From Candidatus Heimdallarchaeota archaeon (GTDB lineage Archaea; Asgardarchaeota; Heimdallarchaeia; Heimdallarchaeales; Heimdallarchaeaceae): a DNA stretch of 64,000 nucleotides. The translations under genes and the position numbers were made by a program. Shown here one piece after another: positions 2,148 through 25,734 of the stretch (the stretch's first letter is position 1; each line of letters begins with the position of its first letter). The notes under the pieces were generated by a model. The model worked only from the letters and a program-made list of their open reading frames with translations, had not been told where the DNA came from and searched no databases. The stretch lies in contig JAHLWR010000011.1 of assembly GCA_019057815.1 (NCBI GenBank), forward strand, positions 32,001-96,000, in the 5' to 3' direction.

Positions 2148-4028
2148 TTGACAGCAATTATTATCGGTGTTGTCTGTGCAATTATTGGGGTTTTTATCAT
2201 TCTAAGAGGATTAGTTTTCTTTGGGAATGGCATTGCACATTCTGCGTTTGCAGGTGGAGCTTTAGCGATACTATTAAACTTACCTTCACCACTTCAACTA
2301 TTAGTGATTACAGGTTTTACAACTGCAACAGCAATAAGTATTGGATATGTAAATCAGAAAGCGAAAATTACAAATGAAACAGCAATAGGGATATTTTTTG
2401 CTTTTACAATGGCACTTGGAGTCATCTTTGTTAGTCTATATAAAACATATAACATTGCAATAAGCTCATTACTCTTTGGTAGTTTAGCATCAATAAGCAA
2501 TACTGAACTTATAACAAACTTGGTTTTAGCACTAATAATTATTAGTGTCGTTCTCATAATTAGAAGAGGATTATATTTTCTAACATTTGACGAAGAATTA
2601 GCCAAAGCAAATGGTATGGCTGTTAATTTCTTATCATATACATTTCTCATACTTACAGCATTGACAATTGTTATGTGTATTACAACAGTTGGAATTATCC
2701 TAGTAATGGCATATATCGTTACTCCAGCAGCAGCAGCATACCAGTTTACATACAAATTAAAAAGGATGATCATTTATTCAGTAATATTCGCCGTTATTGC
2801 TTCTTTTTTGGGTTTTATGATAGCATATTTACTCGATATTTCCGGAAGTGCAACAATAGCTATTGTTCTAACATTAATGTTTCTTATATCAATGCTAATC
2901 TCACCAAAACGACGATCAAGAAAAATAGGCGCAGATGTAACGCTTTGTATTAAGTGTGAAAAATTAGTAGAAGAGTCCGAGTGTAAATACTGCATTATTA
3001 GTGAAAATACTCGCATAAATGACAATTTAAAAGAACCATTGTTACCTAATCAAATCTTCAAAGATGATGAAAATAGAATAATAAAACAAGAGAAACTACA
3101 AGAAAATAATGTTTCAAATAAGGAGAGTAACCCCATTATAGATTTACGTGATATTTCAGTAGTTTTAGATAAGAATCTCATTATTGATGATATAAACTTA
3201 CAAATCAGAAAGGGGGAGTATATTGGTTTAATCGGTAAAAATGGATCTGGAAAGAGCACATTAATGAAAACAATATTAGGATTGATCAAACCAACAAAAG
3301 GTACTGTGAGAATTTTTGGTTTACCTATAGAAAAAAAACTTAGTAGAAGAATATCAATCAAAAAAATAATTTCTACATATACGAGAAAAAATACAAGGAA
3401 TAACATTTCTTTGAATATTTATGATCGTATTGGTTATGTTTCTCAAATGCATCTAATTCAGAGAGAATTTCCAGCTACAGTTCGCGATGTTGTTGCAATG
3501 GGATTGTACAAGAAGGGTAGCTCTTTAATAGTAAAAATGCTTAGGCTTTTGGTACTTATATTCCATTTTCCATTGGTTTTCTATGATACTGAAGGTTTTG
3601 TAAAGAAATTTAGAGGAAGAATCCAAAGCGTTAAGGATGTTAAAAAACATAGGAAAGATAATAATGAAAAAGTCTTAAACGCATTACATAAAGTCGGAAT
3701 GGGAACATTCCAGAATCGCCCAATAGGTCATCTTTCGGGGGGAGAACAGCAAAAAGTACTTGTAGCTCAATCTCTTGCTAGAAATCCAGAGATTTTACTT
3801 CTAGATGAACCTACAGCAGCTCTGGATTTTGTTATGGTGAAAAATTTCCTAGATCTGCTAAATACACTGAATAAGAAATATGGTCTAACATTGATTGTTA
3901 TCCAACACAACCTTGAGATGTTGCGACCTTTCTGTTCAAGATTGATTATGTTAAAAGGAATAATAGTTTATGATGGTTTACCAAACATTCCTAGAGCAGA
4001 TCAAGTATTAGAAACAGTATTCTCTTGA
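2148..4028 (+). CDS. Fused metal ABC permease (ZnuB-like) and ATPase (ZnuC-like); true start may be ATA at 2088
   Basis: N-half has the ABC-3 permease motifs GIAHSAFAG and TFDEELAKANG. C-half has Walker A GKNGSGKST, LSGGEQQ and LLLDEP. Confidence 0.9.
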   Translation: MTAIIIGVVCAIIGVFIILRGLVFFGNGIAHSAFAGGALAILLNLPSPLQLLVITGFTTATAISIGYVNQKAKITNETAIGIFFAFTMALGVIFVSLYKTYNIAISSLLFGSLASISNTELITNLVLALIIISVVLIIRRGLYFLTFDEELAKANGMAVNFLSYTFLILTALTIVMCITTVGIILVMAYIVTPAAAAYQFTYKLKRMIIYSVIFAVIASFLGFMIAYLLDISGSATIAIVLTLMFLISMLISPKRRSRKIGADVTLCIKCEKLVEESECKYCIISENTRINDNLKEPLLPNQIFKDDENRIIKQEKLQENNVSNKESNPIIDLRDISVVLDKNLIIDDINLQIRKGEYIGLIGKNGSGKSTLMKTILGLIKPTKGTVRIFGLPIEKKLSRRISIKKIISTYTRKNTRNNISLNIYDRIGYVSQMHLIQREFPATVRDVVAMGLYKKGSSLIVKMLRLLVLIFHFPLVFYDTEGFVKKFRGRIQSVKDVKKHRKDNNEKVLNALHKVGMGTFQNRPIGHLSGGEQQKVLVAQSLARNPEILLLDEPTAALDFVMVKNFLDLLNTLNKKYGLTLIVIQHNLEMLRPFCSRLIMLKGIIVYDGLPNIPRADQVLETVFS

Positions 4029-4185
4029 AAAATGCATTGTACATTCCAGTAAGTTTTTCTGTTCATTTATCATCTTTGAACAGAAAAAAAACAAAAATAA
4101 TACTAACTATATGTGTTTTCAAACAAAGTTTATAAGAAAAAACCAAATAGTTACACTAACGGAAATATGCAACTTGTGATTCAAA

Positions 4186-14777: not shown

Positions 14778-14960
14778 TTTTCGTCCCGAAAAATTGAATT
14801 GAAACGTATTTTCCAAATACAAGATTATTTAACGTTTCAACGACTAATACACGTAAACAGAAAATCGCCTCTACATTTTTAGTACTTCTCAGATAATATT
14901 GTCTCGGGACAAAAACCTTTTTATACCCAATCACGTAAACTATTTTGTCCCGAGACGAAA
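14778..14960 (+). promoter_or_regulatory. Promoter of the longin/bZIP-like/actin operon with repeated palindromic sites
   Basis: TTGTCTCGGGACAA (14899-14912) and TTTTGTCCCGAGACGAAA (14943-14960) flank a TATA-like TTTTATAC (about 14918-14925). Partial third copy at 14778-14793. CACGTAAAC occurs twice. Confidence 0.6.
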
Positions 14961-14987: not shown

Positions 14988-15506
14988 ATGAAAAAGCATG
15001 AAAAACTCAGAATAAATGCGAAAGAAGCCAAAAAACGTTCATTAGATTTAGGTTTAGTGATTGTTTACTTTGATCAAATTAAAGGACCAGTTATTCTAGT
15101 AAACCACTCCTCTTTGGATGAGCGTGAACTCTTTCATTTATCAGTTAATGGAACAAGTTCCATGATGAGTGGTGTGAATTATGGTCCAGAGGATACACAT
15201 CGTTTTCGAGGAATCTTTCCTGTCAATGACAGATCTTTTGCTTACTGCTTCGACTCACTCATAACTGTTGATCAAACAGAAAGGTGTTCTTATACACCAA
15301 TATTGCTATTTGTTGTTTTCCCATCTTCAGAGTTAAATTCTTTCGGATTGAATATTAAATCTGTTGAAATGCTTCTAACTAAGTACACTGTAAACAGAAT
15401 AGAACTTTCTCGATTCACTTCAAAATTTTGCGCTTCTGTATGTTTTTCAATTACGAAGGAATTCCAGAAACAGATTTCCGTACTGGGACAAAATTCAAAA
15501 CTATGA
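14988..15506 (+). CDS. Longin/uDENN-like domain protein (Asgard eukaryotic-signature-like)
   Basis: LVIVYFDQIKGPVI matches the hydrophobic-FDxxxGP start of uDENN/longin folds, followed by a helix, a beta-meander and C-terminal helices. Confidence 0.6.
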   Translation: MKKHEKLRINAKEAKKRSLDLGLVIVYFDQIKGPVILVNHSSLDERELFHLSVNGTSSMMSGVNYGPEDTHRFRGIFPVNDRSFAYCFDSLITVDQTERCSYTPILLFVVFPSSELNSFGLNIKSVEMLLTKYTVNRIELSRFTSKFCASVCFSITKEFQKQISVLGQNSKL

Positions 15507-15522
15507 AAGATAAGGTGACACA

Positions 15523-16263
15523 ATGAATGATGAACACGAAACAAAAGGTCCAGGGAGACCCCGAAAATATGCAACATCAGCAGAGCGAAAACGAGCTTAT
15601 AGGGAGAGAAAAAAGGAGAGACTCGCTCAAATGCAAAAAGGTGTTGCAAGACTAGAGAAGAAGGTGAGTAAATTGGGTATAACTAAAGAAAGATCTGATA
15701 AGTTGGATTCTCTACTAAATGAAATCGAGACACCAATGGCTAAATTTGCACCTTCTGAAATCGCAGAAATGGAAAATGATGAACTCTTGGAATTGCGAGA
15801 CATCTTGAGACACTGGTTGCAGGATCATAGAGGGCTTGGAGGAATAGTGACTCAATTGAGCAATGCTATAATTCCAAGAGCGTATGCTTCCTTTGATCAA
15901 TTGGAGTTATTTGGTCCAAGACAAGAAGAAGAAGAAGGAGAGGTAAAATACATTCCCTCGATGGTCGAAACAGTGATAGACAAAAAACGTCAAAATGCAA
16001 GAGCATATTACTTTTCATCATCAAGTAACAGATATAGCAGTAGTAACCTTGCAGAACTATTCGAACAAATCACCTTGCTCTATCTTGTTGAAGCTGAGAT
16101 CGCTAAGAGACGAAGAGACAAAGTTGAAGATTTTGCTATCGTGCAGCTAGAGACTAGAATCAAGGAACTAGAATCACTGCTAGAGGATAGTGAAGAAGCT
16201 AAAACTGAACCTTACTATAGAGGGGGTGAATCAGGTGGAAAAAGAGGTGATATCAATGAGTAA
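15523..16263 (+). CDS. AT-hook + bZIP-like coiled-coil protein (paralogue 1)
   Basis: GPGRPRK, then AERKRAYRERKKERLAQMQKGVARLEKKV. C-terminal LLYLVEAEIAKRRR...QLETRIKELE. Confidence 0.7.
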   Translation: MNDEHETKGPGRPRKYATSAERKRAYRERKKERLAQMQKGVARLEKKVSKLGITKERSDKLDSLLNEIETPMAKFAPSEIAEMENDELLELRDILRHWLQDHRGLGGIVTQLSNAIIPRAYASFDQLELFGPRQEEEEGEVKYIPSMVETVIDKKRQNARAYYFSSSSNRYSSSNLAELFEQITLLYLVEAEIAKRRRDKVEDFAIVQLETRIKELESLLEDSEEAKTEPYYRGGESGGKRGDINE

Positions 16264-17395
16264 GAAGAATTTAGAGTCAAAAGAAAATAAACTGAGAGGT
16301 AAACCAATCGTTCTTGAATTTGGTTCAGCATTTACAAGAATAGGATTTTCGAGTGAAGATGCACCTCGAATAGTTAAACCAACGATTGTAGGTTATAATG
16401 ATGTAGTATCAAAGAATGACAATCTTACATCGATTTTAACCGAAACTAACAAACAAGCGTTTGTTGGCATTGCAGCTATTGAGAAAAGGAAGGAACTCGA
16501 AATAGTATATCCAATTAAAAACAGAAAAATAAATGACATGCAAGCTCTTAAAGTTATGATCCAATACGCAATTGAGAGAGACTTATCAATTACACCCGAT
16601 TTGCATGCAGCAATCGTTATTCTTCCATATCCAATCAGTGAAGAGGAAAAAGAAGAAATTACTAAAATGCTTTTAGACGATCTAAATTTTCCTGGTGTAT
16701 ATGTTTCATCTAGTGAAAATATGCCCCTATACAGTATAGGAAGAACAACTGGTATAGTTGTTGATTCAGGATACGAAAAAACAGATATTATACCTATTTT
16801 AGATGGTAAAATCATCACTAAAGCTGTTAAAAGCTTAAACATAGGTGGATATCACGTTACAAACAAGCTTAGAGAATCTCTGAGAGAGCAAGATTTCACA
16901 TATACAGATGAGGAAGACAAATTCTTTGGAGCTGCAAGAAACATCAAAGAAAATCTATGCTATGTAGCTTTAAATGCGGATAAGGAAATAGAACTAGCTT
17001 CTAAAGTTTCAGGGATGAGAAAAATACACAAGCTTCCAAATGGGGAAAAATATATTGTTGAACTCCAACGTTTTTTGGCGACTGAGATCTTGTTTCAACC
17101 AGAGATGATTGATTTGAAAGAAAAACCATTGCATGAACAAATTATCGATTCGATTCAGTCTTGTGATACTAAAAACCAATCATCGTTGTGGTCTAATATT
17201 GTTATTGCAGGTGGAAATTCTATATTACCAGGATATCATGCTAGATTAAATCACGAACTAAAATCACTAGCACCTGAAAACGAAGATGTAAGAATATATT
17301 CTACACCATCAAACACTAGCTTTTCTTCATGGATAGGCGCAAGTATCCTTAGTTCTAGAATGGAGTTTAGTAAACATTGGATTACAAAAAAGTAA
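16256..17395 (+). CDS. Actin-family protein (Asgard actin-related protein)
   Basis: PIVLEFGSAFTRIGFSSEDAPR, YPI, GRTTGIVVDSG, RNIKENLCYVA, LPNG, EILFQP, NIVIAGGNS and WIGASILSS. ATG at 16256 follows GAGGTGA and overlaps the upstream gene. Confidence 0.93.
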   Translation: MSKKNLESKENKLRGKPIVLEFGSAFTRIGFSSEDAPRIVKPTIVGYNDVVSKNDNLTSILTETNKQAFVGIAAIEKRKELEIVYPIKNRKINDMQALKVMIQYAIERDLSITPDLHAAIVILPYPISEEEKEEITKMLLDDLNFPGVYVSSSENMPLYSIGRTTGIVVDSGYEKTDIIPILDGKIITKAVKSLNIGGYHVTNKLRESLREQDFTYTDEEDKFFGAARNIKENLCYVALNADKEIELASKVSGMRKIHKLPNGEKYIVELQRFLATEILFQPEMIDLKEKPLHEQIIDSIQSCDTKNQSSLWSNIVIAGGNSILPGYHARLNHELKSLAPENEDVRIYSTPSNTSFSSWIGASILSSRMEFSKHWITKK

Positions 17396-17650
17396 TGTCT
17401 AAAAATGTTCTTTTTTCTTTTTTTTCTTTTTCTCTTATACATTTATCGAAGTACTGCTCTCCTACATATGAGGTTCAAGGGACAGTAGGAGAACATTAAT
17501 TTCCAATAATACCTATACAATCAGATATATATTTTAAACATAAATGAAAAAGATTTTCTTAAGATTTGTAAAAAATCTGACTTTTTAGTTAATAATATAT
17601 AGAAAGAAAATTAATTTCTTTTGGCTTTACTTGGAAAAAAGCTATGTTTT

Positions 17651-20089
17651 TCAAACGGGTTCAGGAAGTGGATAAAAATCATATGATCCACTTGAACCAG
17701 CTATTTCATAGGATCCAACACCAATCCAGTCCACCCAATAGTTACCTTCTAGAGTAATAATGTCGTACCAGATGTTGTTGGTTCCTGCATCAAATGCTTG
17801 ACTATCACCATTCATATAATTATCTATGAAGTTATTATAGGATATTACATTGTTTGAAGAGTATTTATTAATTGAAAGAGCATACATTCTGCTATATAGG
17901 AAAGTGTTTCCTAATAAATTGCTATTAGATGAAAAATTCAGCTGTATCCCTGTTTCACAGTATAGCAATTGATTTTTCGAAATATTAGTTTTGAAACTAT
18001 CTTCTATTAACAAACCTACGAATGAACTATTTAGTATGCTATTGTCTTTTACAACCACATCTACGCAACCATATAGCATTGTTCCTACAACACTGAGTAG
18101 AATAGTATTATTAATAATTTCAATCGGTCCAAGCAGTTCTTCATACTTCTTAATTATCACTGAATTTTCAACTTTTGTTAACCAATAACTTGTATTGATG
18201 ACGATTCCAGAGTAAGTACTATTATAAATTAAGTTTTCAGAAACAGTAAGAAAAAAAGTAAAATAACAACGTATGCCACAACCATTATTATCTAAAGAAT
18301 TATACTTAATTGTCATAAATTTAGATTCTATTGAATGAATTCCAAAATTATTACAGTTGAAGATTTCATTTGTTGTTATATTAACTATCTCACAAAAAAT
18401 AACAAAAATCCCTTTTAAACAATTGAAAAAGTAGTTATCAGAAATAATGATTTGAGAACAAAATACCAAAGATAATCCATTAGAATTGATATTATTTAAA
18501 CTACAATTTGTTATGGTACAATTACAAGAATAATATAGAGCAATTCCGTCCTCAACACTCTCAATTTGCTGATTAAGTATTTTTATATCGGAACAATTAA
18601 AGAAAATTAGTTGACCATATTCATCTACAATTTCTTTATTTCTTACATTCTTGAAAAAACCTAAAGGTTTTTTGTTTACAGTATTATTGATAATTGTTGA
18701 GGTAGAAAATAGCAGCTCACTTTCATGACCAAAAAAACTAAGACCATTATTTATCAATTGGTTACTAATAAGGTTAAAGTTTGAGTTCAAATCAATTTTA
18801 ATCCCACTTCCATGATTATTAGAAACTACATTATCTATTACAGTTGCATTATCGAATCTCCAAAGTGAAATACCACTCCCATTATTTTTTTCAATTAAAT
18901 TATTTCTAATGTTTGTACAAGGGGATTCAATTGCACAAATTCCAAAACAATTTGAAGATATCATGTTATTTTCAATATTAGTTTTTTCAGAATCAAAAAT
19001 ACTAACCCCCTTATAAGTATTTGAAAGAGTGGAGTTTAGGATATCACAATTAGAACATGCTCTGAATTCAATAGCTGTGTAGCTATTATTGATCCTCTGA
19101 TTTACAATAGAAACATTAATACAATCAATTAGAAAAATTTGTCCATATTTATCAGAAAGCACTGAATTTTCGAGTTTAGTGAAGAATCCAAGTTTATACC
19201 CATTGATCCAATTATTATATACATTATAGTGTTCAAATCTACTATCAAAAAAATAATCAAGTTGAATACCTAAACCACAGAGAAGGTTATTAGAAATTGT
19301 TGTATTGGTTGAATCACGTATATATAATTTACCTTTATTATCACTATCTACAACATTTCCGTTTATAATAGAATTGGGTGACCATTCCATTGAAAGAAAG
19401 TATCGAGGGGAATCAACAAAAGTATTATTCTGAATTTCAACTTCTGCACTGAAACTAACACGAATATAGCTTTTACTAAATGAATTGTGAACAATCAAAG
19501 TAAAATCTGAACCCCTTAATTCAATTCCAATCATTAGTTCTCCAATTTTTTCCTCAAAAAAACAATTATTTTGTATTCTTACATTGTTTGAATCTTGGAC
19601 ATATATTCCCTGATATCCACAGTTATAGATTGAATTATTTGTGATATAGGCAGTATTTGGAGCTATATTTTTAATTGAAATACCAGTGGAACTAGCTTTT
19701 AATATACAATTTTGTATCACAAAATATGAAGCTATATCCATAATAAGAATGGCATCTCTTGCAGTTGTTGTAATATTAAAATACTCAATGATATAGGGAG
19801 AGTCTTTTGTACCTTTACCCTTGGATGTATAATTCTTGAAGTCAATTTCTCTTTTTATCACAATTGACTCAGTCGTATTTTCAAAGGATGGTTCAGTCAA
19901 ATCATCAGGATATGAATCGGATTGATCATTAATTAAGAAATAAATTCCTACTATACTTCCGCTAATAATAAATAAAGAAAAAAGTATGGATATCGACTTA
20001 AAAAAAGTTGAATTAATCTTTATTTGTTTCATAATATCACAATTGTGTATCACTTGTTTAGGTGTTGGAACACTTATAGGTATTTTCAT
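17651..20089 (-). CDS. CASH/NosD right-handed beta-helix surface protein
   Basis: Parallel beta-helix repeats, G.GT...PYII motif, C-terminal GNYW.DW...D.YPL. Confidence 0.85.
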   Translation of the reverse strand: MKIPISVPTPKQVIHNCDIMKQIKINSTFFKSISILFSLFIISGSIVGIYFLINDQSDSYPDDLTEPSFENTTESIVIKREIDFKNYTSKGKGTKDSPYIIEYFNITTTARDAILIMDIASYFVIQNCILKASSTGISIKNIAPNTAYITNNSIYNCGYQGIYVQDSNNVRIQNNCFFEEKIGELMIGIELRGSDFTLIVHNSFSKSYIRVSFSAEVEIQNNTFVDSPRYFLSMEWSPNSIINGNVVDSDNKGKLYIRDSTNTTISNNLLCGLGIQLDYFFDSRFEHYNVYNNWINGYKLGFFTKLENSVLSDKYGQIFLIDCINVSIVNQRINNSYTAIEFRACSNCDILNSTLSNTYKGVSIFDSEKTNIENNMISSNCFGICAIESPCTNIRNNLIEKNNGSGISLWRFDNATVIDNVVSNNHGSGIKIDLNSNFNLISNQLINNGLSFFGHESELLFSTSTIINNTVNKKPLGFFKNVRNKEIVDEYGQLIFFNCSDIKILNQQIESVEDGIALYYSCNCTITNCSLNNINSNGLSLVFCSQIIISDNYFFNCLKGIFVIFCEIVNITTNEIFNCNNFGIHSIESKFMTIKYNSLDNNGCGIRCYFTFFLTVSENLIYNSTYSGIVINTSYWLTKVENSVIIKKYEELLGPIEIINNTILLSVVGTMLYGCVDVVVKDNSILNSSFVGLLIEDSFKTNISKNQLLYCETGIQLNFSSNSNLLGNTFLYSRMYALSINKYSSNNVISYNNFIDNYMNGDSQAFDAGTNNIWYDIITLEGNYWVDWIGVGSYEIAGSSGSYDFYPLPEPV

Positions 20090-20300
20090 GTAGATAAGAC
20101 AACTGAATTATTCAAGAGGAAAAACGTTAATACTACTACTACTATGATTTCAGTAATTAACTTACTTTGTTCCGATAATTTGAATAACTGGCTTCTTTTA
20201 AGACGTTTATTTCAGCTTTAATATTGTTCCTTAAAAGAACATCTATTTTATACAATAAGTTTATATATACCTTTTAGTAAATGGTATGATTAGAGTATAG

Positions 20301-22043
20301 TTGAAGTTTCATAATCCGGTGAGAAATTTGAAGATAAAAGAAACCAAGACAAATAAAATCAAGAATAAATATTTGAAAAAACTCTCTTTAGAATTAATTA
20401 AAAGAGGTACTGCAAATGATCAAATAAAATCAATATTAGATGAAGTCTCGATTAGCATCGAAGACTATGTTTCAGAGTTTAAACCAAAAGATTTCAGTGA
20501 AATGATGGAAAAATTTGGTTCTCCTCAGAATTTCTGTGATAATAACTCAATTATTCGTTCACGTGAAGCATTAACAGGTCAAATAGTGTTTTTAGTACTG
20601 ACAACTCTTAGTCTTTTGGTAGTCCCTGTAATTGTGATAACAAGCATTTCGATTCGTATGGTACCTCATTCGCTTATTTTTGAGAGATCAGAGAAATTTT
20701 TTTTGGGAATAGAGGGAGCAAATAATGGTTATGGATTTTTGGGGATTATATTTGGTCTAAGTATTTACATATGGATGCTTTATCAATACTTCAAGGATAA
20801 ATTTTCACCTTACGATATAAGGGAGAATATTAAAATTATCATACTTTTATTATTCTGGTTTTTAGTGGTTTTCTACCTTTATCTAGTTATAAGGAATTAT
20901 ACCTTCTATCATGAAGTAATAGCTGATATGTGGAACCAAGATATGAAACTTATTGTTTTAGAAGGATTAATTAGATGGTTAGCTGCTGGAATTGTATTAC
21001 TTGTTATAACCATGCTTTATACTAACAAATACTATAGGTATTATCGCAAAAAGAATCGCAGAGAACAGAAAAAATTCCTAATAGACCAAGTGGGTGTATT
21101 GGTTATCGTTTTTGTTTTAACTAGTTTTATATCTCCTGGACCAAGTATTGGAGTATTAATTACTGCAATGGCAATTGGAACTATTTTAATAGGAAAAATT
21201 ACAGGAAAAACATGGATTTTAGGCATTCTCGCTTTGTTACTACATTTAGGAGCCTTAATAAATGACTTAGTTGCTATAGAAGATATAGTAAGCAATCGTT
21301 TTGATAGAACACGAATTATTTTTGGAATTAGAACGAGTAATACTGAAAACATCGTTTTTCCAGCTATCATAATATCATTGTGTCTTGTTATTATTTGGAC
21401 AATATTTTGTATTAGGGTTTTAAAGAGGGATAAGAGACAATTTTTACCCCGTTTCAACTTACAAAAAGGAAGGACAATGTTTGTTTCTATTTCTTTAGTC
21501 ACTTTGGCTCTTATTGCTGTTCTTGGTTCACAACCCCATTACACGTTAATTGCAGAGGATTATCATGTAGAAGTTTCAGAAACATATATTACAGCTGACC
21601 TATTTTACAAGATACCAGATAAAGGAAGATTATTCATATCATATTATACATCTATAGAAGACAGCGATCACAAACTAAGTGGTAGTTGGTTTCTTACTTG
21701 GAAGCTAGCTGGCGCCATTTTAACAACATTCAAAAGTGAAGGAAATTTCTCAAGTAAAACTGACCCTAGTTACTCAAATACAATATTCAATTACACTTTT
21801 TCAATTCACTACTTATCATTGAAAATAAATAATTCTGGAACTATTCATTATCAGTATAAGATTAGAATTGATAGTTTGACAGTTTTAATACCAGTTTTTC
21901 AAATTCAGTGGTCACCAATAGTACCATGGTTTAAAACTTGGAATGATGTTACCATATTCATTAGTACAATAGTACTCTTTTTCTTATCCTGGAATAAGAA
22001 GAGGAACATAATTTCACTGAACTCGAAAAAAGGAGATGCTTAA
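20301..22043 (+). CDS. Multi-pass membrane protein with HAAS-like N-terminal domain
   Basis: YLKKLSLEL...ILDEV...IED...EKFGSPQ N-terminus; many TMs; abuts a PadR gene. Confidence 0.65.
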   Translation: MKFHNPVRNLKIKETKTNKIKNKYLKKLSLELIKRGTANDQIKSILDEVSISIEDYVSEFKPKDFSEMMEKFGSPQNFCDNNSIIRSREALTGQIVFLVLTTLSLLVVPVIVITSISIRMVPHSLIFERSEKFFLGIEGANNGYGFLGIIFGLSIYIWMLYQYFKDKFSPYDIRENIKIIILLLFWFLVVFYLYLVIRNYTFYHEVIADMWNQDMKLIVLEGLIRWLAAGIVLLVITMLYTNKYYRYYRKKNRREQKKFLIDQVGVLVIVFVLTSFISPGPSIGVLITAMAIGTILIGKITGKTWILGILALLLHLGALINDLVAIEDIVSNRFDRTRIIFGIRTSNTENIVFPAIIISLCLVIIWTIFCIRVLKRDKRQFLPRFNLQKGRTMFVSISLVTLALIAVLGSQPHYTLIAEDYHVEVSETYITADLFYKIPDKGRLFISYYTSIEDSDHKLSGSWFLTWKLAGAILTTFKSEGNFSSKTDPSYSNTIFNYTFSIHYLSLKINNSGTIHYQYKIRIDSLTVLIPVFQIQWSPIVPWFKTWNDVTIFISTIVLFFLSWNKKRNIISLNSKKGDA

Positions 22044-22412
22044 ATGCCAAGAGATGAGCATGAAGAAGAAGTCTTGTTGAAAAAATGGCGAGCGCAACTA
22101 TCTAGAGGGATCTTAGAATTCCTCGTGCTCATCCTCCTACAGAAAGAAAGACATGGTTGGGATATCTTGCAACTAGTTAGATCTTTATTACCTCCAACTG
22201 AACCCCCATTAGCAGATGGTACAATTTACAATATTCTAACTAGATTAAAAGAAAGAGAATTAGTATCGTCTAGAAGCAAAATCATAGAAGGAAGAATGAG
22301 AAGATATTATAAACTATCAAAAAAAGGTGAGGTATTATTAACTGAAATGATTAAAGATTGGAAGAGTGTGATAATTTCAATTTCTGAAGCTGAAGAAATA
22401 AGTAAAACATAA
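22044..22412 (+). CDS. PadR-family transcriptional regulator
   Basis: QLSRGILEFLVL...RHGW, GTIYNILTRL and RRYYKLS.KG motifs. Confidence 0.92.
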   Translation: MPRDEHEEEVLLKKWRAQLSRGILEFLVLILLQKERHGWDILQLVRSLLPPTEPPLADGTIYNILTRLKERELVSSRSKIIEGRMRRYYKLSKKGEVLLTEMIKDWKSVIISISEAEEISKT

Positions 22413-22664
22413 AATTTTAGGAATAAGTGTACTTCTAATAATAATCAAAGAGTAAAAGAATGCTCTAAACTGCAGAAAAGAGCTAGTAAAAGACTACATT
22501 TGTGGGATATCATTCCAGAGTGAAGACGATATTACTTTACCTCATGAAGGTTTTTCAACTGATTTTCTATATCGTACTAAAGCCACCAACTTTGATGGCA
22601 TTAATAATTTCATTAGCACTTCTAACTCTTTTCCACAACACCATAAGCCAATTATAGAATATAG

Positions 22665-22730
22665 TAACGTTATGGTAATATTTATATATACTGAGGAGAA
22701 ATAATAACGTGACGAAATTAATTTCGTAAC
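22665..22730 (+). promoter_or_regulatory. Promoter of the second bZIP-like/actin operon with palindromes
   Basis: TAACGTTA (22665-22672), TATA box TTTATATA (22681-22688) and the perfect 16-bp palindrome ACGAAATTAATTTCGT (22712-22727). Confidence 0.6.
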
Positions 22731-22749
22731 CAACTAGTGTTGTGATAAT

Positions 22750-23649
22750 ATGACTGATAAGAAGAAGAAAGGACCTGGACGTCCCCGAAAACATGTTTCT
22801 TATGATGTGCCTAAAGACGAACTTGCTGCAGCTAGACAGAAAGCTTATCGTGCTCAGAAGAAAAAAAGAATTGTGGAAATCCAACGCAAGGTTGGACGAC
22901 TTGAACAGGAAGTAATAACTATGTCGAAAACTGATAAAAAAATATCGCCTGAAATGCAAGCAATACATGAAGATATTCAAGCTCCTTGGGTGAAATATAC
23001 AGAATCAGAGCTCATGGAAATGGATGATTCTCAGCTTGAACGAATAAGGGCTGTTTTAATAAATCGCTTAATGAATCCTTTTGGTAATCCGTTAACCCAA
23101 GCTTTAGAAAGGGTAATTATGCCCTCTGTTGATCGCGAATTTGATTCAAGAGGTTTAGACTTGAAGAAACCTCCCAAAGAAATAGCAGAAGAAGGGTTAT
23201 CTAAACCTGCAGAGGATGTGACACCAAAGACTGACATGCAAATAAGTCAGTATCTTGAGAGGCTTGAAGCTGAAGGTGTGGATATTTCATCTATTAAGGA
23301 TCATGTTGTTCCTTCATCAATGGAATATAGGAAAGAAGAATCACCTCTTCACTGGAAAAATGTAACAGTAGGGCACAGAATCCAGCCGCTATTTGATACT
23401 TTTCAACAGATGATTTTGCTGTATAATGTTGAAGCTGAATTATCTAGACGAAAACGAGAAATGGCATTGGATTCAGATGTTGAACAGCTCGAAAAACGTA
23501 TCGAAGAACTTGAGAAATCGCTTGTTGATGAAAGAACAAGAGAAGTAAAGAGAAGTTACGCAAGAAAGATGGAGGATTACGCAAGAAGAACGGAGAAAAA
23601 AGATATAATCAAGAAGTCTCCAAAAAAGAAGACTAAAGGTGGTGAATAA
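22750..23649 (+). CDS. AT-hook + bZIP-like coiled-coil protein (paralogue 2)
   Basis: GPGRPRK...AAARQKAYRAQKKKRIVEIQRKVGRLEQEV and C-terminal LLYNVEAELSRRKR...QLEKRIEELE. Clearly homologous to 15523..16263. Confidence 0.75.
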   Translation: MTDKKKKGPGRPRKHVSYDVPKDELAAARQKAYRAQKKKRIVEIQRKVGRLEQEVITMSKTDKKISPEMQAIHEDIQAPWVKYTESELMEMDDSQLERIRAVLINRLMNPFGNPLTQALERVIMPSVDREFDSRGLDLKKPPKEIAEEGLSKPAEDVTPKTDMQISQYLERLEAEGVDISSIKDHVVPSSMEYRKEESPLHWKNVTVGHRIQPLFDTFQQMILLYNVEAELSRRKREMALDSDVEQLEKRIEELEKSLVDERTREVKRSYARKMEDYARRTEKKDIIKKSPKKKTKGGE

Positions 23650-23786
23650 ATGTCCGACGAAGTATACACCAAACCTATAGTCTTAGATAAACGGTACTGG
23701 CTTCACTAAAAACATTTTCGAAATTGTGGGAGACAAAGAAAGAATACCAAGAAATGGGTCCAAGTTCTGTATATAGGTGTATATAG
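23650..23786 (+). pseudogene. Internally deleted canonical Asgard actin gene (N- and C-termini only)
   Basis: MSDEVYTKPIVLD[+1 A]NGTGFTKN joined to LASLKTFSKLWETKKEYQEMGPSSVYRCI*. ATG abuts the upstream TAA, with a GGTGA SD. Confidence 0.88.
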
Positions 23787-23838: not shown

Positions 23839-25734
23839 TTACTTCTTCTTCTTTCGCTTAATTCTTAATCCTACATACATTACAGGCACAGCAAATAGAA
23901 TGTAATTTAATTCTCCATGATATTCAGAGATTATTATGATTAATGGTTCTTCAAGTGGATAAGTATCATTAGATCTTGCTGCACCATCAATTGTGTAATT
24001 TCCTAATTCACTCCAGTCTGACCAATAATTTCCTTCTAGAGTAATTGTGTCGTACCAGATGTTGTTTGTTCCTTCATCATATGCTTGACTTGAAGTTCCA
24101 CCATTTTCAGTGAAAGTGTTATGGTGAATAACGTTATTTGCTGAAGCAGAGTCCACATACAAAGCGTAAGCATAATTTGCATGAAAAATATTGTATGTTA
24201 CGTTTGTATTAGTACAACTATAGAGTATTGTTCCAGTAGCAGAACTACCTCCGGTACCAAAAGCTATTGAATTATTGGTTATGATTCCATAAGAAGTACC
24301 TTGAAATCTGCTATTATACCATGAATTTCCAAACAGAGTGTTATTTATAACTTTAAAATCTGTAACACTGTTGAGCAAATATATTCCAAATTGGTTATTA
24401 CTAGCAAAATTATCCTTAATTATTATATCATTGCTGGAAATTGCATAAATTCCACCGTAGTTTCTATTGTTACTACATGTATTGTTCTGTATGAAAATCG
24501 AAGAAGAATGTGTAAAATAGATACTTCCATAGTTATTCGCATTAAAGTCATTATTAGTTATATTAATCGAATTACAATATCGAAAAATTAAAGCTCTACT
24601 TGTATCCATAATATGAACATTCGATATACTAATGTTTGAACAATAAGCCATGATGATTTGTCCATAGAAGTCTCCAGAGATAGTTGCATCAATAAGATCT
24701 CTGAAAAATCCTAAAGGTTTGTCATTCACCGTGTTATTTTCAACATTTAGTTCATCATACACTGCTAAATCTCCTGGTGCGGAAATATCAAAACCATCTT
24801 TTGTTAATGTGTTGTTGACAATTATTGTTCGTGCAGCTAGTTCGTTGTTAATCCCTTCCCATCTGTTATAGTATAATGTATTATTGATTATGGAATTATC
24901 TGCTCCCCCTTGCAAATAGATTCCTCTACGACTATTATCATGAATGTAATTGAAATTTACAGTTGTATCAACAGAATACTTGATGTAAATTCCGTAATAT
25001 CCATTGCTGTAACATTCATTATCAATTACCTTACAATTATCTGCATTATCAACATAAATACCATATTGTGTATTGCCCCAACACATATTTTCAATCAATG
25101 TAGTATTAGCTGATTTAGTCCATATCCCGTGTTGTGTGTTAGAGTAGAACTTGTTCAAACTGAAAATTGAATGTGCTGACCCTTCAACATAAACCCCATT
25201 AGCTTGATATGCACAAGTGTTGTTTGTTACAATGGTATATGGTGAAAATTCTAAGAAAATCCCATCGGAATTATCGTTGCAGATATTTTCTGTGATATTT
25301 ACATAAGTAGTATCGCTGATTCTAATTCCATGCCCACTACCAGTACAAGTATTATTGTAAATCGTTGCTGTACCATCAGCAACATTGTCTATACAAATAC
25401 CACTGCCAAAAGCTTCTAATGTACAATTACGAATGGTAAAATATTTTGTTGTACCAGTAATATATATCCCATAATATTCAGTAGTCTCAATGTCATAATT
25501 TTCAATTATGTATGGTGATTCTGGTTCTCCTGTCCCCGAAGAACTATTTCCTGCTAAATCGTCATCATTAGTTATGTAAAGACGTTCATCTGAAGACAGA
25601 TTTTTATTTGGATAAAGATTAGCGCTAGAATCTTCAGCGGATATCTCAGTCAGAACTAATGTAATCGACGCAGTGCTAAGAAGAATCAAAATAATAATTA
25701 AAACTTTTAGATTTTTTTTAGTAATGTTTCTCAT
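23839..25734 (-). CDS. CASH/NosD beta-helix surface protein with C-terminal anchor
   Basis: Signal peptide, beta-helix repeats, GNYWSDW, TM plus RKKKK tail. Confidence 0.88.
   Translation of the reverse strand: MRNITKKNLKVLIIILILLSTASITLVLTEISAEDSSANLYPNKNLSSDERLYITNDDDLAGNSSSGTGEPESPYIIENYDIETTEYYGIYITGTTKYFTIRNCTLEAFGSGICIDNVADGTATIYNNTCTGSGHGIRISDTTYVNITENICNDNSDGIFLEFSPYTIVTNNTCAYQANGVYVEGSAHSIFSLNKFYSNTQHGIWTKSANTTLIENMCWGNTQYGIYVDNADNCKVIDNECYSNGYYGIYIKYSVDTTVNFNYIHDNSRRGIYLQGGADNSIINNTLYYNRWEGINNELAARTIIVNNTLTKDGFDISAPGDLAVYDELNVENNTVNDKPLGFFRDLIDATISGDFYGQIIMAYCSNISISNVHIMDTSRALIFRYCNSINITNNDFNANNYGSIYFTHSSSIFIQNNTCSNNRNYGGIYAISSNDIIIKDNFASNNQFGIYLLNSVTDFKVINNTLFGNSWYNSRFQGTSYGIITNNSIAFGTGGSSATGTILYSCTNTNVTYNIFHANYAYALYVDSASANNVIHHNTFTENGGTSSQAYDEGTNNIWYDTITLEGNYWSDWSELGNYTIDGAARSNDTYPLEEPLIIIISEYHGELNYILFAVPVMYVGLRIKRKKKK

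Follow-up and report, generated by a model that had tools for sequence, protein, structure and literature searches.

Why would an archaeon place the gene of a small basic protein directly ahead of an actin gene, and what would that protein do there? The question is raised by two genes, here called X1 and X2, in a 64,000-nucleotide (nt) stretch of DNA from Candidatus Heimdallarchaeota archaeon (contig JAHLWR010000011.1, positions 32,001 to 96,000), the whole of which is called the window below. The first-pass annotation had described the two as paralogues that begin with an AT-hook and a basic region plus zipper, run up to the start of an actin gene, and act either as a eukaryote-like transcription factor for actin expression or as an adaptor between DNA and actin. 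The answer that we favour, with a probability of about 0.6, is that X would be a dimeric, operon-specific autoregulator, whose zipper-paired basic helices would sit on palindromes in its own promoter and set the level of the linked extra actin. Dimerisation, DNA binding, the sign of regulation, and co-transcription of X with actin are what we infer from the sequences. The genes concerned are the following.

15523 to 16263, plus strand: X1, 246 amino acids (aa), with an AT-hook-like arm GPGRPRKY (residues 9-16), a basic helix SAERKRAYRERKK and a short heptad repeat, after which come a small middle domain of helices and a long, conserved helix at the C-terminus.
16256 to 17395, plus strand: actin C, an intact divergent actin-family gene, whose ATG at 16256 overlaps the X1 stop by 8 nt (ATGAGTAA).
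22750 to 23649, plus strand: X2, a long-form paralogue of 299 aa, with an 8-residue insertion between its GRPRKH arm and basic helix (AAARQKAYRAQKKK).
23650 to 23786, plus strand: actin remnant, 137 nt of a canonical (actin B-type) actin, whose ATG at 23650 abuts the X2 stop.

X1 and X2 are the only copies of X in their genome, and are indeed paralogues, with 31% identity over the full length (E 4e-27). Both N-termini read K-G-P-G-R-P-R-K, followed by AERKRAYRERKK in X1 or AARQKAYRAQKKK in X2 and then by heptad hydrophobics, so that the AT-hook-like start, basic region and zipper described earlier can be read in both, with the zipper as a short heptad repeat. The second basic and zipper-like segment proposed for the pair is also there, as a shared C-terminal helix (LLYxVEAE..RR.R...LE.RI.ELE). 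The ratio of nonsynonymous to synonymous substitution rates (dN/dS) was 0.26 for X1, against the close relative L013, and 0.30 for X2, against the related metagenome-assembled genome (MAG) locus L008, the latter pointing to purifying selection. The dS of X2 against L008 (3109-3960) was 0.39, above that of its neighbours PadR (0.07) and S15 peptidase (0.19).

The actin sequences behind the two genes differ in state. Actin C matched the Pfam Actin family (PF00022) at 257-262 bits (E 7e-78) in an open frame without stops, has a Shine-Dalgarno sequence GAGGTGA ahead of its ATG (16256), and shows a dN/dS of 0.23. It is 38% identical to the main actin of the genome and forms a long branch in the actin tree. 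In the remnant behind X2, frame 1 gives MSDEVYTKPIVLD, frame 2 NGTGFTKN, and frame 3 KTFSKLWETKKEYQEMGPSSVYRCI followed by a stop; the whole amounts to about 20 N-terminal and 25 C-terminal actin residues with two frame changes, about 1 kb of the gene having been lost. Only a C-terminal fragment matched Pfam Actin (22 bits), and 31 residues are 74% identical to the main actin. Since L008 carries the same remnant (3984-4125), the deletion is old. In L008 the N-terminal part is still in a single frame (MSDEVYTKPIVLDNGTGFTKNIFEIVVDKERIPRNGFKVCI and a stop), and apart from one indel the two remnants disagree at only about 7 positions, a smaller divergence than that of X2 itself. Whole actin-family genes in the genome thus number three, namely the main actin on contig C38 (446 bits), actin C, and an Arp-like gene of 490 aa (194 bits). 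The stop-to-start coupling with actin that had been claimed for both genes therefore stands for X1, with its 8-nt overlap and intact actin, and fails for X2, which abuts a dead remnant of 137 nt; the X-actin gene pairing holds once here, plus one fossil.

The evidence that carries the proposed regulation lies upstream of the two genes, where the following features were located.

14899 to 14912, no strand assigned: putative operator 1, a 14-bp palindrome TTGTCTCGGGACAA directly 5' of the B recognition element (BRE)/TATA region of the ORF172-X1-actin operon.
14918 to 14925, plus strand: TATA-like box TTTTTATA between the operators, read from the sequence as a presumed promoter element.
14945 to 14958, no strand assigned: putative operator 2, TTGTCCCGAGACGA, 20 nt past the TATA box, at the expected transcription start.
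14988 to 15506, plus strand: ORF172, between the operators and X1, without a Pfam family.
22662 to 22675, no strand assigned: putative X2 operator a, TAGTAACGTTATGG with core GTAACGTTAT, directly 5' of a TATA-like box.
22677 to 22690, plus strand: X2 TATA-like box AATATTTATATATA, likewise a probable promoter element by its sequence.
22703 to 22726, no strand assigned: putative X2 operator b region, where ATAACGTGAC, which departs from the core at one base, overlaps the perfect palindrome CGAAATTAATTTCG.

The upstream palindromes noted in the first-pass annotation are present, and proved highly specific. The sequence GTCYCGRGAC occurs at just two sites in the 3.7-Mb genome, which are spaced 46 nt from each other on either side of the TATA box of the X1 operon; its expected count in the window is 0.03. 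When five other genomes were scanned, the 12-mer was found only at the X promoter, and a reversed control gave none. Nearly all long-form loci carry two copies of TTGTCYCGRGACAA upstream of X, the first directly 5' of an A/T-rich TATA-like box and the second following after 35-47 nt, with another 15-25 nt from there to the ribosome-binding site, and the arrangement GACAAAAAyyTTTTTATA recurs in related loci. In the 150 nt ahead of X, 4.5 kb of sequence in total, the degenerate form GTCYCDRGAC occurred 32 times, while the remaining 242 kb of these loci had it 3 times. Operator positions are fixed at about −74 and −28 from the X start codon, with the −74 motif present in 14 related loci. The X2 promoter has its own version, with the core GTAACGTTAY at 22664-22673 and, at 22704-22713, a copy that deviates at one base; in the orthologous locus L008 the matching two positions are occupied by TTGTAACGTTATGA and TCGTAACGTTACTT.

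The same operator layout was found ahead of X paralogues that have no actin beside them, each with its own inner 6 bp. The short-form subfamilies carry the versions TTGTAATATTACAA, TTGTAACGATACAA, and CTGTATTAATACAA, in which the outer TTGT/ACAA is constant and the six inner bases vary. This recurrence in actin-unlinked members points to DNA binding and autoregulation as the probable core function of the family. A wider regulon was not found, as the genome's other sequences close to one or the other operator type fall inside genes or in uninformative places.

On these grounds the regulation may be pictured as follows. The AT-hook-like arm (GRPRKY) would lead into a basic helix of the pattern T/S-x-A-E-R-K/Q-K-A-Y-R-E-R-K-K, which would continue into the short heptad repeat, so that two chains pair and bring two basic helices onto the 14-bp palindrome TTGT-N6-ACAA. 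Each basic helix would read one half of the palindrome, with the GRPRKY arm laid along the A/T-rich flank, and the C-terminal helix possibly aids pairing. An N-terminal dimer on TTGTCTCGAGACAA might take a grip like that of a basic leucine zipper (bZIP) protein, with residues −3 and +1 (relative to the invariant tyrosine of the basic helix) at the inner bases. The two palindromes would bracket X's own TATA box, one lying over the BRE position and the other over the expected transcription start. In archaeal promoters, occupancy at the BRE or the start site should as a general rule repress. With the operators so placed, occupancy would block TFB/TBP and RNA polymerase, and autoregulation would be negative. 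Long-form X would then be a dedicated, on-site regulator of the actin that follows, actin B in relatives and actin C behind X1, so that the operon would hold back its own expression and meter out an accessory actin. Of the roles proposed at first, that of a transcription factor for actin expression fits best in its regulatory part; its eukaryote-like part, membership of the bZIP family, is not supported by the evidence given below.

The protein itself was examined through a family logo built from 122 unique N-termini, with the invariant tyrosine as position 0. G−15, R−14 and P−13 were conserved at 98%, R−4 at 99%, A−1 and Y0 at 100%, and R+3, K+4 and K+5 at 98-99%. Further positions were R−12, K−11, Y−10, T−8, A−6, E/D/A−5, Q/K−3 (Q 53%), K−2, R/Y/H+1 (R 49%), and E+2; position −7 was N in 49%, R in 22% and D in 16%, and is Ser in X1 and Ala in X2. 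Heptad hydrophobics followed at +8, +11 (99%), +15 (93%), and +18 (98%), within a range of 68-99%. The GRP arm and the basic helix are the best-conserved part of the family. In AlphaFold models of X1 (27 sequences, pLDDT 72.5; helices 19-69, 77-126, and 171-228) and X2 (30 sequences, pLDDT 71.1; helices 22-61, a helical middle, and an 83-residue helix at 207-289) no beta strand was present, and a single predicted helix, residues 19-69 in X1 and 22-61 in X2, spans the basic region and the heptads. Foldseek with the X1 model found nothing in the PDB at E≤0.001, VIA-align wide with the X2 model gave generic helical hairpins (best Z 7.6), and the ESM Atlas returned a template-modelling (TM) score of no more than 0.33 in the shape search and a noise-level 0.81 in the feature search.

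How far does the likeness to bZIP proteins go? The ungapped resemblance to Yap1-type bZIPs, with Ser or Ala at the Asn position, was reproducible. The N-terminus profile, searched against the PDB, placed the Yap-type bZIP chain 7aw7_D first (E 0.0016) and Pap1 (1gd2) third (E 0.058), with CREB and AP-1 later. The register of GCN4 and Pap1, which we take to be the same as that of the family, has N at −7, E/D at −5, Q at −3, A at −1, an aromatic residue at 0, R at +1, and a core at +8/+11/+15/+18. With the Yap1/Pap1 bZIPs (PF00170; 1gd2, 7aw7) the family shares an apparently unbroken run from basic helix to heptads, the spacing from A-(F/Y)-R to the core, Gln at −3, the aromatic residue at 0, and, in its presumed targets, short palindromes with abutting half-sites. 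It differs in that the scores are below cut-off, the Asn is not conserved, Arg (99%) stands at −4, where bZIPs have Ala, and only 2-3 heptads follow; it has an arm and a helix cap before the basic helix and two helical regions after it, and it is archaeal and restricted to a few genera.

Membership of the bZIP family is not supported. Against the Pfam gathering cut-offs (27.6 bits for bZIP_1, PF00170; 22.3 bits for bZIP_2, PF07716), X1 reached 15.6 bits (bZIP_2), X2 15.0, and the best family member 21.0 (E 3.7e-4, bZIP_1); 13 of 30 members gave weak matches to the bZIP models, none of the 30 at cut-off. These scores are no better than those of other coiled coils in the genome, for in a six-frame scan for bZIP X2 ranked 2nd and X1 6th among ordinary coiled coils, and all 14 of the 14 control prokaryote genomes gave bZIP matches at E≤10. 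The invariant bZIP Asn of the N-x7-R/K signature is absent in X1 and X2. Instead, the predicted helix starts at −8/−7, at the Asn position, with a T-x-x-E pattern that probably acts as a helix cap.

The arm and basic helix also occur outside the archaea. A module of 20-25 residues, GRPRKY..AER..AYR.RK, was found in high-GC bacterial open reading frames (ORFs; L061-L072), in a Conchiformibius ORF (L045), and in five PHROG families (9651, 28252, 6334, 10506, and 23279; no function assigned) at E 4e-4 to 3e-2. Near-identical modules are VGRPRRYATDAERQRAYRERKA (L070) and RKYASNAERQRAYRERKK (Conchiformibius contig). In the bacterial proteins the module is N- or C-terminal within unrelated architectures, often with Pro at +11 or without heptads in the register of X, and the middle and C-terminal domains of X are not in the bacterial or phage module proteins. 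On the Conchiformibius sp. contig (L045, 2735-5411), the bacterial ORF carries the module at its C-terminus, its last residues being RKYASNAERQRAYRERKKARNR, and a 593-aa ORF begins within its 3' end. The first-pass annotation had allowed that its motif might be only the generic GRP..AERQ.AYR element of plasmid and phage proteins; the module is indeed that generic element, found in bacterial and phage proteins too, and in the X family it is followed by the heptads at +8/+11/+15/+18. The arm resembles an AT-hook of the HMGA type (PF02178) in its G-R-P core flanked by basic residues (GPGRPRK), G-R-P-R-K being 95-98% conserved, and differs in being a single copy fused to a helix. Pfam AT_hook matched one of the 30 members, weakly and below cut-off (E 0.023).

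Because the scores are below cut-off, the Asn is lost, the helix starts where it does, only 2-3 heptads follow, and the module is found in bacteria and phages, the bZIP likeness is best read as a shared architecture built on a prokaryotic DNA-binding module, with homology not demonstrated. The sub-threshold scores, together with the narrow distribution described next, argue against the family as the origin of eukaryotic bZIPs.

The distribution of the family was followed by an exhaustive HMMER search, a separate profile search with the N-terminus, and a presence scan of 400 Asgard genomes. HMMER returned about 30 clusters at 50% identity. The N-terminus profile returned at least 296 clusters at 90% identity; the matches listed carry Asgard or Heimdall labels, bar a few differently labelled bins, and none of them has a Pfam family. 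Scans of Pfam, NCBIfam, and PHROGs gave no named family for X. The family was found in 36 of the 400 genomes. Within the window's own family of genomes it was present in 23 of 30, confined to genera g1 and g5; a second Heimdallarchaeia family had short forms only, in one genus (9 of 12 genomes), and a third had N-terminal fragments in 3 of 22 genomes. None was found in the remaining families of the scan, one with 135 genomes included. With 36 of 400 genomes and few genera, X is a lineage-specific family and not a general Asgard trait, and we propose from its sequences that it is an unannotated family of small helical, presumably DNA-binding proteins. Single contigs of the second Heimdallarchaeia family carry several short-form paralogues and N-terminal fragments within a few kb of each other (G092:C13 12356-18930; G089:C96 31540-34011; G090:C345 134-3689).

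In a tree of 33 members, 21 rows formed a long-form clade (support 98/95), and the other 12 rows were short forms of about 190-215 aa. X1, X2 and every actin-adjacent gene (12, plus the 2 remnant cases) are in the long-form clade, and a conserved insertion of about 90 residues (MPSVDREFDSR, TPKT, HWK) is confined to this actin-linked clade. Actin begins 0-80 nt after X or overlaps it. When the 400-genome scan was combined with an actin scan of the window's family, all 10 of the 10 same-family genomes of genus g5 that have a second canonical actin (actin B, 430-443 bits) were seen to carry it directly 3' of a long-form X, on the same strand. The X-linked actins form a clade of their own in the actin tree, actin B (support 91/87). 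X1-type genes are followed by the fast-evolving actin C in the window, L013, and L048, and the metagenome contig L048 (1-2532) has tandem actins around X, in the order divergent actin C-terminal fragment, X1-like gene (58% identical to X1), and actin (385 aa). The main actin (actin A, the highest-scoring and very conserved) was never linked to X. Short-form X genes neighbour TPR proteins, short-chain dehydrogenases (SDR), and kinases. The long-form clade is ancestrally linked to actin. The expectation that a homologue precedes the main actin gene is borne out for a second actin paralogue, in one genus-level group plus the window's genus, and not for the main actin; a linkage throughout Heimdallarchaeia is contradicted by the few genera that have the family. 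Actin remnants behind X were sought in the actin-less loci L014, L020, L021, L029, L016, and L026 and not found, L008 alone having one, and the divergent actins of sister genera (G018, G019) have no X-like gene ahead. In L021 (6226-8433) X is followed, where actin B would be expected, by an ORF of 735 aa that has a Cas12f1-like TNB domain (TnpB/Cas12f-like), which suggests insertion of or replacement by a mobile element.

The inner bases of the palindromes track residues −3 and +1 of the basic helix. The pair K,R at −3,+1 went with CYCGRG inner bases in 22 of 29 loci and 4 subfamilies, Q,Y went with A/T-rich inner bases in 2 subfamilies, and Q,R went with AACGTT in X2. A simpler rule, Arg+1 for a CG centre and Tyr+1 for an AT centre, was dropped, as AACGAT sites occur with Tyr+1.

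Several observations weigh against the autoregulator. The co-variation of inner bases with residues −3 and +1 is suggestive only, because it spans only some 7 subfamilies and has exceptions at +1, and another factor could bind the palindromes. Heptad conservation fades past +18-22, leaving about 2-3 heptads for pairing, and the X1 and X2 models are monomers of moderate confidence (pLDDT 71-72, pTM 0.44-0.48). X2 is under purifying selection despite the loss of its actin, and no further promoter carries its motif; a pure self-regulator model leaves this retention without cargo unaccounted for. In the window, moreover, ORF172 now sits between the operators and X1. An alignment of the window with L013 shows that L013 lacks, at this place, a segment of about 540 nt with ORF172, and ORF172 has paralogues on contigs C21 (39%) and C1 (33%).

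Other genes near X were also recorded. A PadR-family regulator gene (22044-22412, E 4.6e-11) ends 337 nt ahead of X2, an order of PadR and X2 that L008 shares. Large right-handed beta-helix (NosD-like) proteins, encoded at 17651-20089 and 23839-25734 (minus strand), flank both X loci, and similar genes recur beside X in L010, L037, and L042.

What else could X be? The foremost alternative, itself unlikely, is that of a ParR-like adaptor, in which long forms would bind the palindromes and hold or nucleate adjacent actin filaments through the insertion of about 90 residues, so tethering a chromosomal site; autoregulation would then be a side effect, as for ParR at parC. Four observations speak for it. 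X is tightly coupled to actin, overlapping it by 8 nt here and lying 0-80 nt ahead of it in relatives; the two genes seem to have been duplicated together, judging by the X1-actin C clade and by the gene order of L048; the insertion is confined to the actin-linked clade; and X2 has stayed under selection after losing its own actin. As in ParR-parC-ParM, the gene of a small, presumably DNA-binding protein lies beside that of an actin-fold ATPase, and the sites flank the promoter of its own operon; in plasmid R1, too, the par promoter has parC iterons on both sides. Here, however, the actin is of eukaryote type (Pfam Actin, not ParM), X lies upstream of it and not downstream, and each promoter has two palindromes, 40-47 nt apart, in place of an iteron array, with no further copies in the genome. 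The models are all-helical and without a ribbon-helix-helix, and the locus is chromosomal with conserved housekeeping neighbours. Short-form paralogues have the same operator layout beside TPR, SDR, and kinase genes, and the Pfam matches of the 30 members include no actin-binding family.

A combination of roles is equally improbable in our estimate: long forms might join a prokaryotic basic-zipper DNA-binding module, either related to Yap-type bZIPs or convergent with them, to a domain particular to their clade through which they contact the actin paralogue encoded beside them. If true, this would give Heimdallarchaeia a chromosomal link between DNA and actin, or a feedback of actin state on actin transcription, loosely like eukaryotic actin-sensing control.

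A little less probable is that X does not bind DNA at all, being either a coiled-coil protein that regulates actin or has a structural role, or an arginine-rich RNA binder on a hairpin of the 5' leader, with some other factor on the palindromes. The long predicted helices, including that of 83 residues in X2, and generic coiled-coil Pfam matches would suit such a protein, and the downstream palindrome, which probably lies in or at the transcript start, could form a short hairpin. The upstream palindrome, however, has the same sequence and lies 5' of the TATA box, so that DNA recognition is simpler; the palindromes go with X in all subfamilies, regardless of which gene comes next, and change along with the basic helix; and the GRP arm and basic helix are what the family conserves best. 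Least probable of all, and very unlikely, is ancestry shared with the Yap/Pap1-type eukaryotic factors, for which the PDB matches, the recurrent sub-threshold bZIP_1 matches, the common register and core spacing, and palindromes with abutting half-sites and CG or ACGT centres may be cited, and against which stand the scores and ranks amid coiled coils and controls, the residues at −7 and −4, a helix capped at the Asn position and not running through it, a module that bacteria and phages carry without the zipper in register or at the C-terminus, and a distribution that a recent local origin fits better than eukaryotic inheritance.

The autoregulator that we favour has archaeal company. GvpE, the haloarchaeal gas-vesicle activator, is described as basic leucine zipper-like; it differs from X, to which we liken it by description only, in activating other promoters and in belonging to Halobacteria. 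AmzR (MA2561) is an archaeal regulator reported to bind promoters as an oligomer, by means of pairs of basic N-terminal helices that have been compared to bZIP/bHLH, and is a large PAS/GAF ligand sensor of methanogens (bioRxiv 10.1101/2025.05.05.652248). The DNA-binding mode proposed for X is the same, again compared by description only; unlike in AmzR, PAS and GAF were not found in Pfam scans of X1, X2, and relatives, which are proteins of 190-300 aa.

Work on Asgard actins has so far centred on actin itself and on eukaryote-like actin-binding proteins, and to our knowledge the control of actin gene expression in Asgard archaea has not been described. Literature searches found no description of an X-actin gene pair, nor any link between Asgard or Heimdall archaea and bZIP-like factors. 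Basic coiled-coil regulators of archaea are known; what appears to be new, judged from sequence, is a putative regulator family, so far without annotation, whose reading head resembles that of bZIPs and in which one clade would serve an actin paralogue. X would be the third apparent archaeal instance of DNA recognition by basic helix and coiled coil, beside GvpE and AmzR. It also ties a widespread, unnamed GRPRKY-AER-AYR-RK motif of bacteria and phages to a likely DNA-binding role, and, with operator and basic helix varying together across subfamilies, may offer a natural series for a recognition code. For the relatives of the eukaryotic ancestor, the locus presents a testable case, in which a dedicated and presumably DNA-binding regulator, a genome-unique operator pair, and an extra actin paralogue come together.

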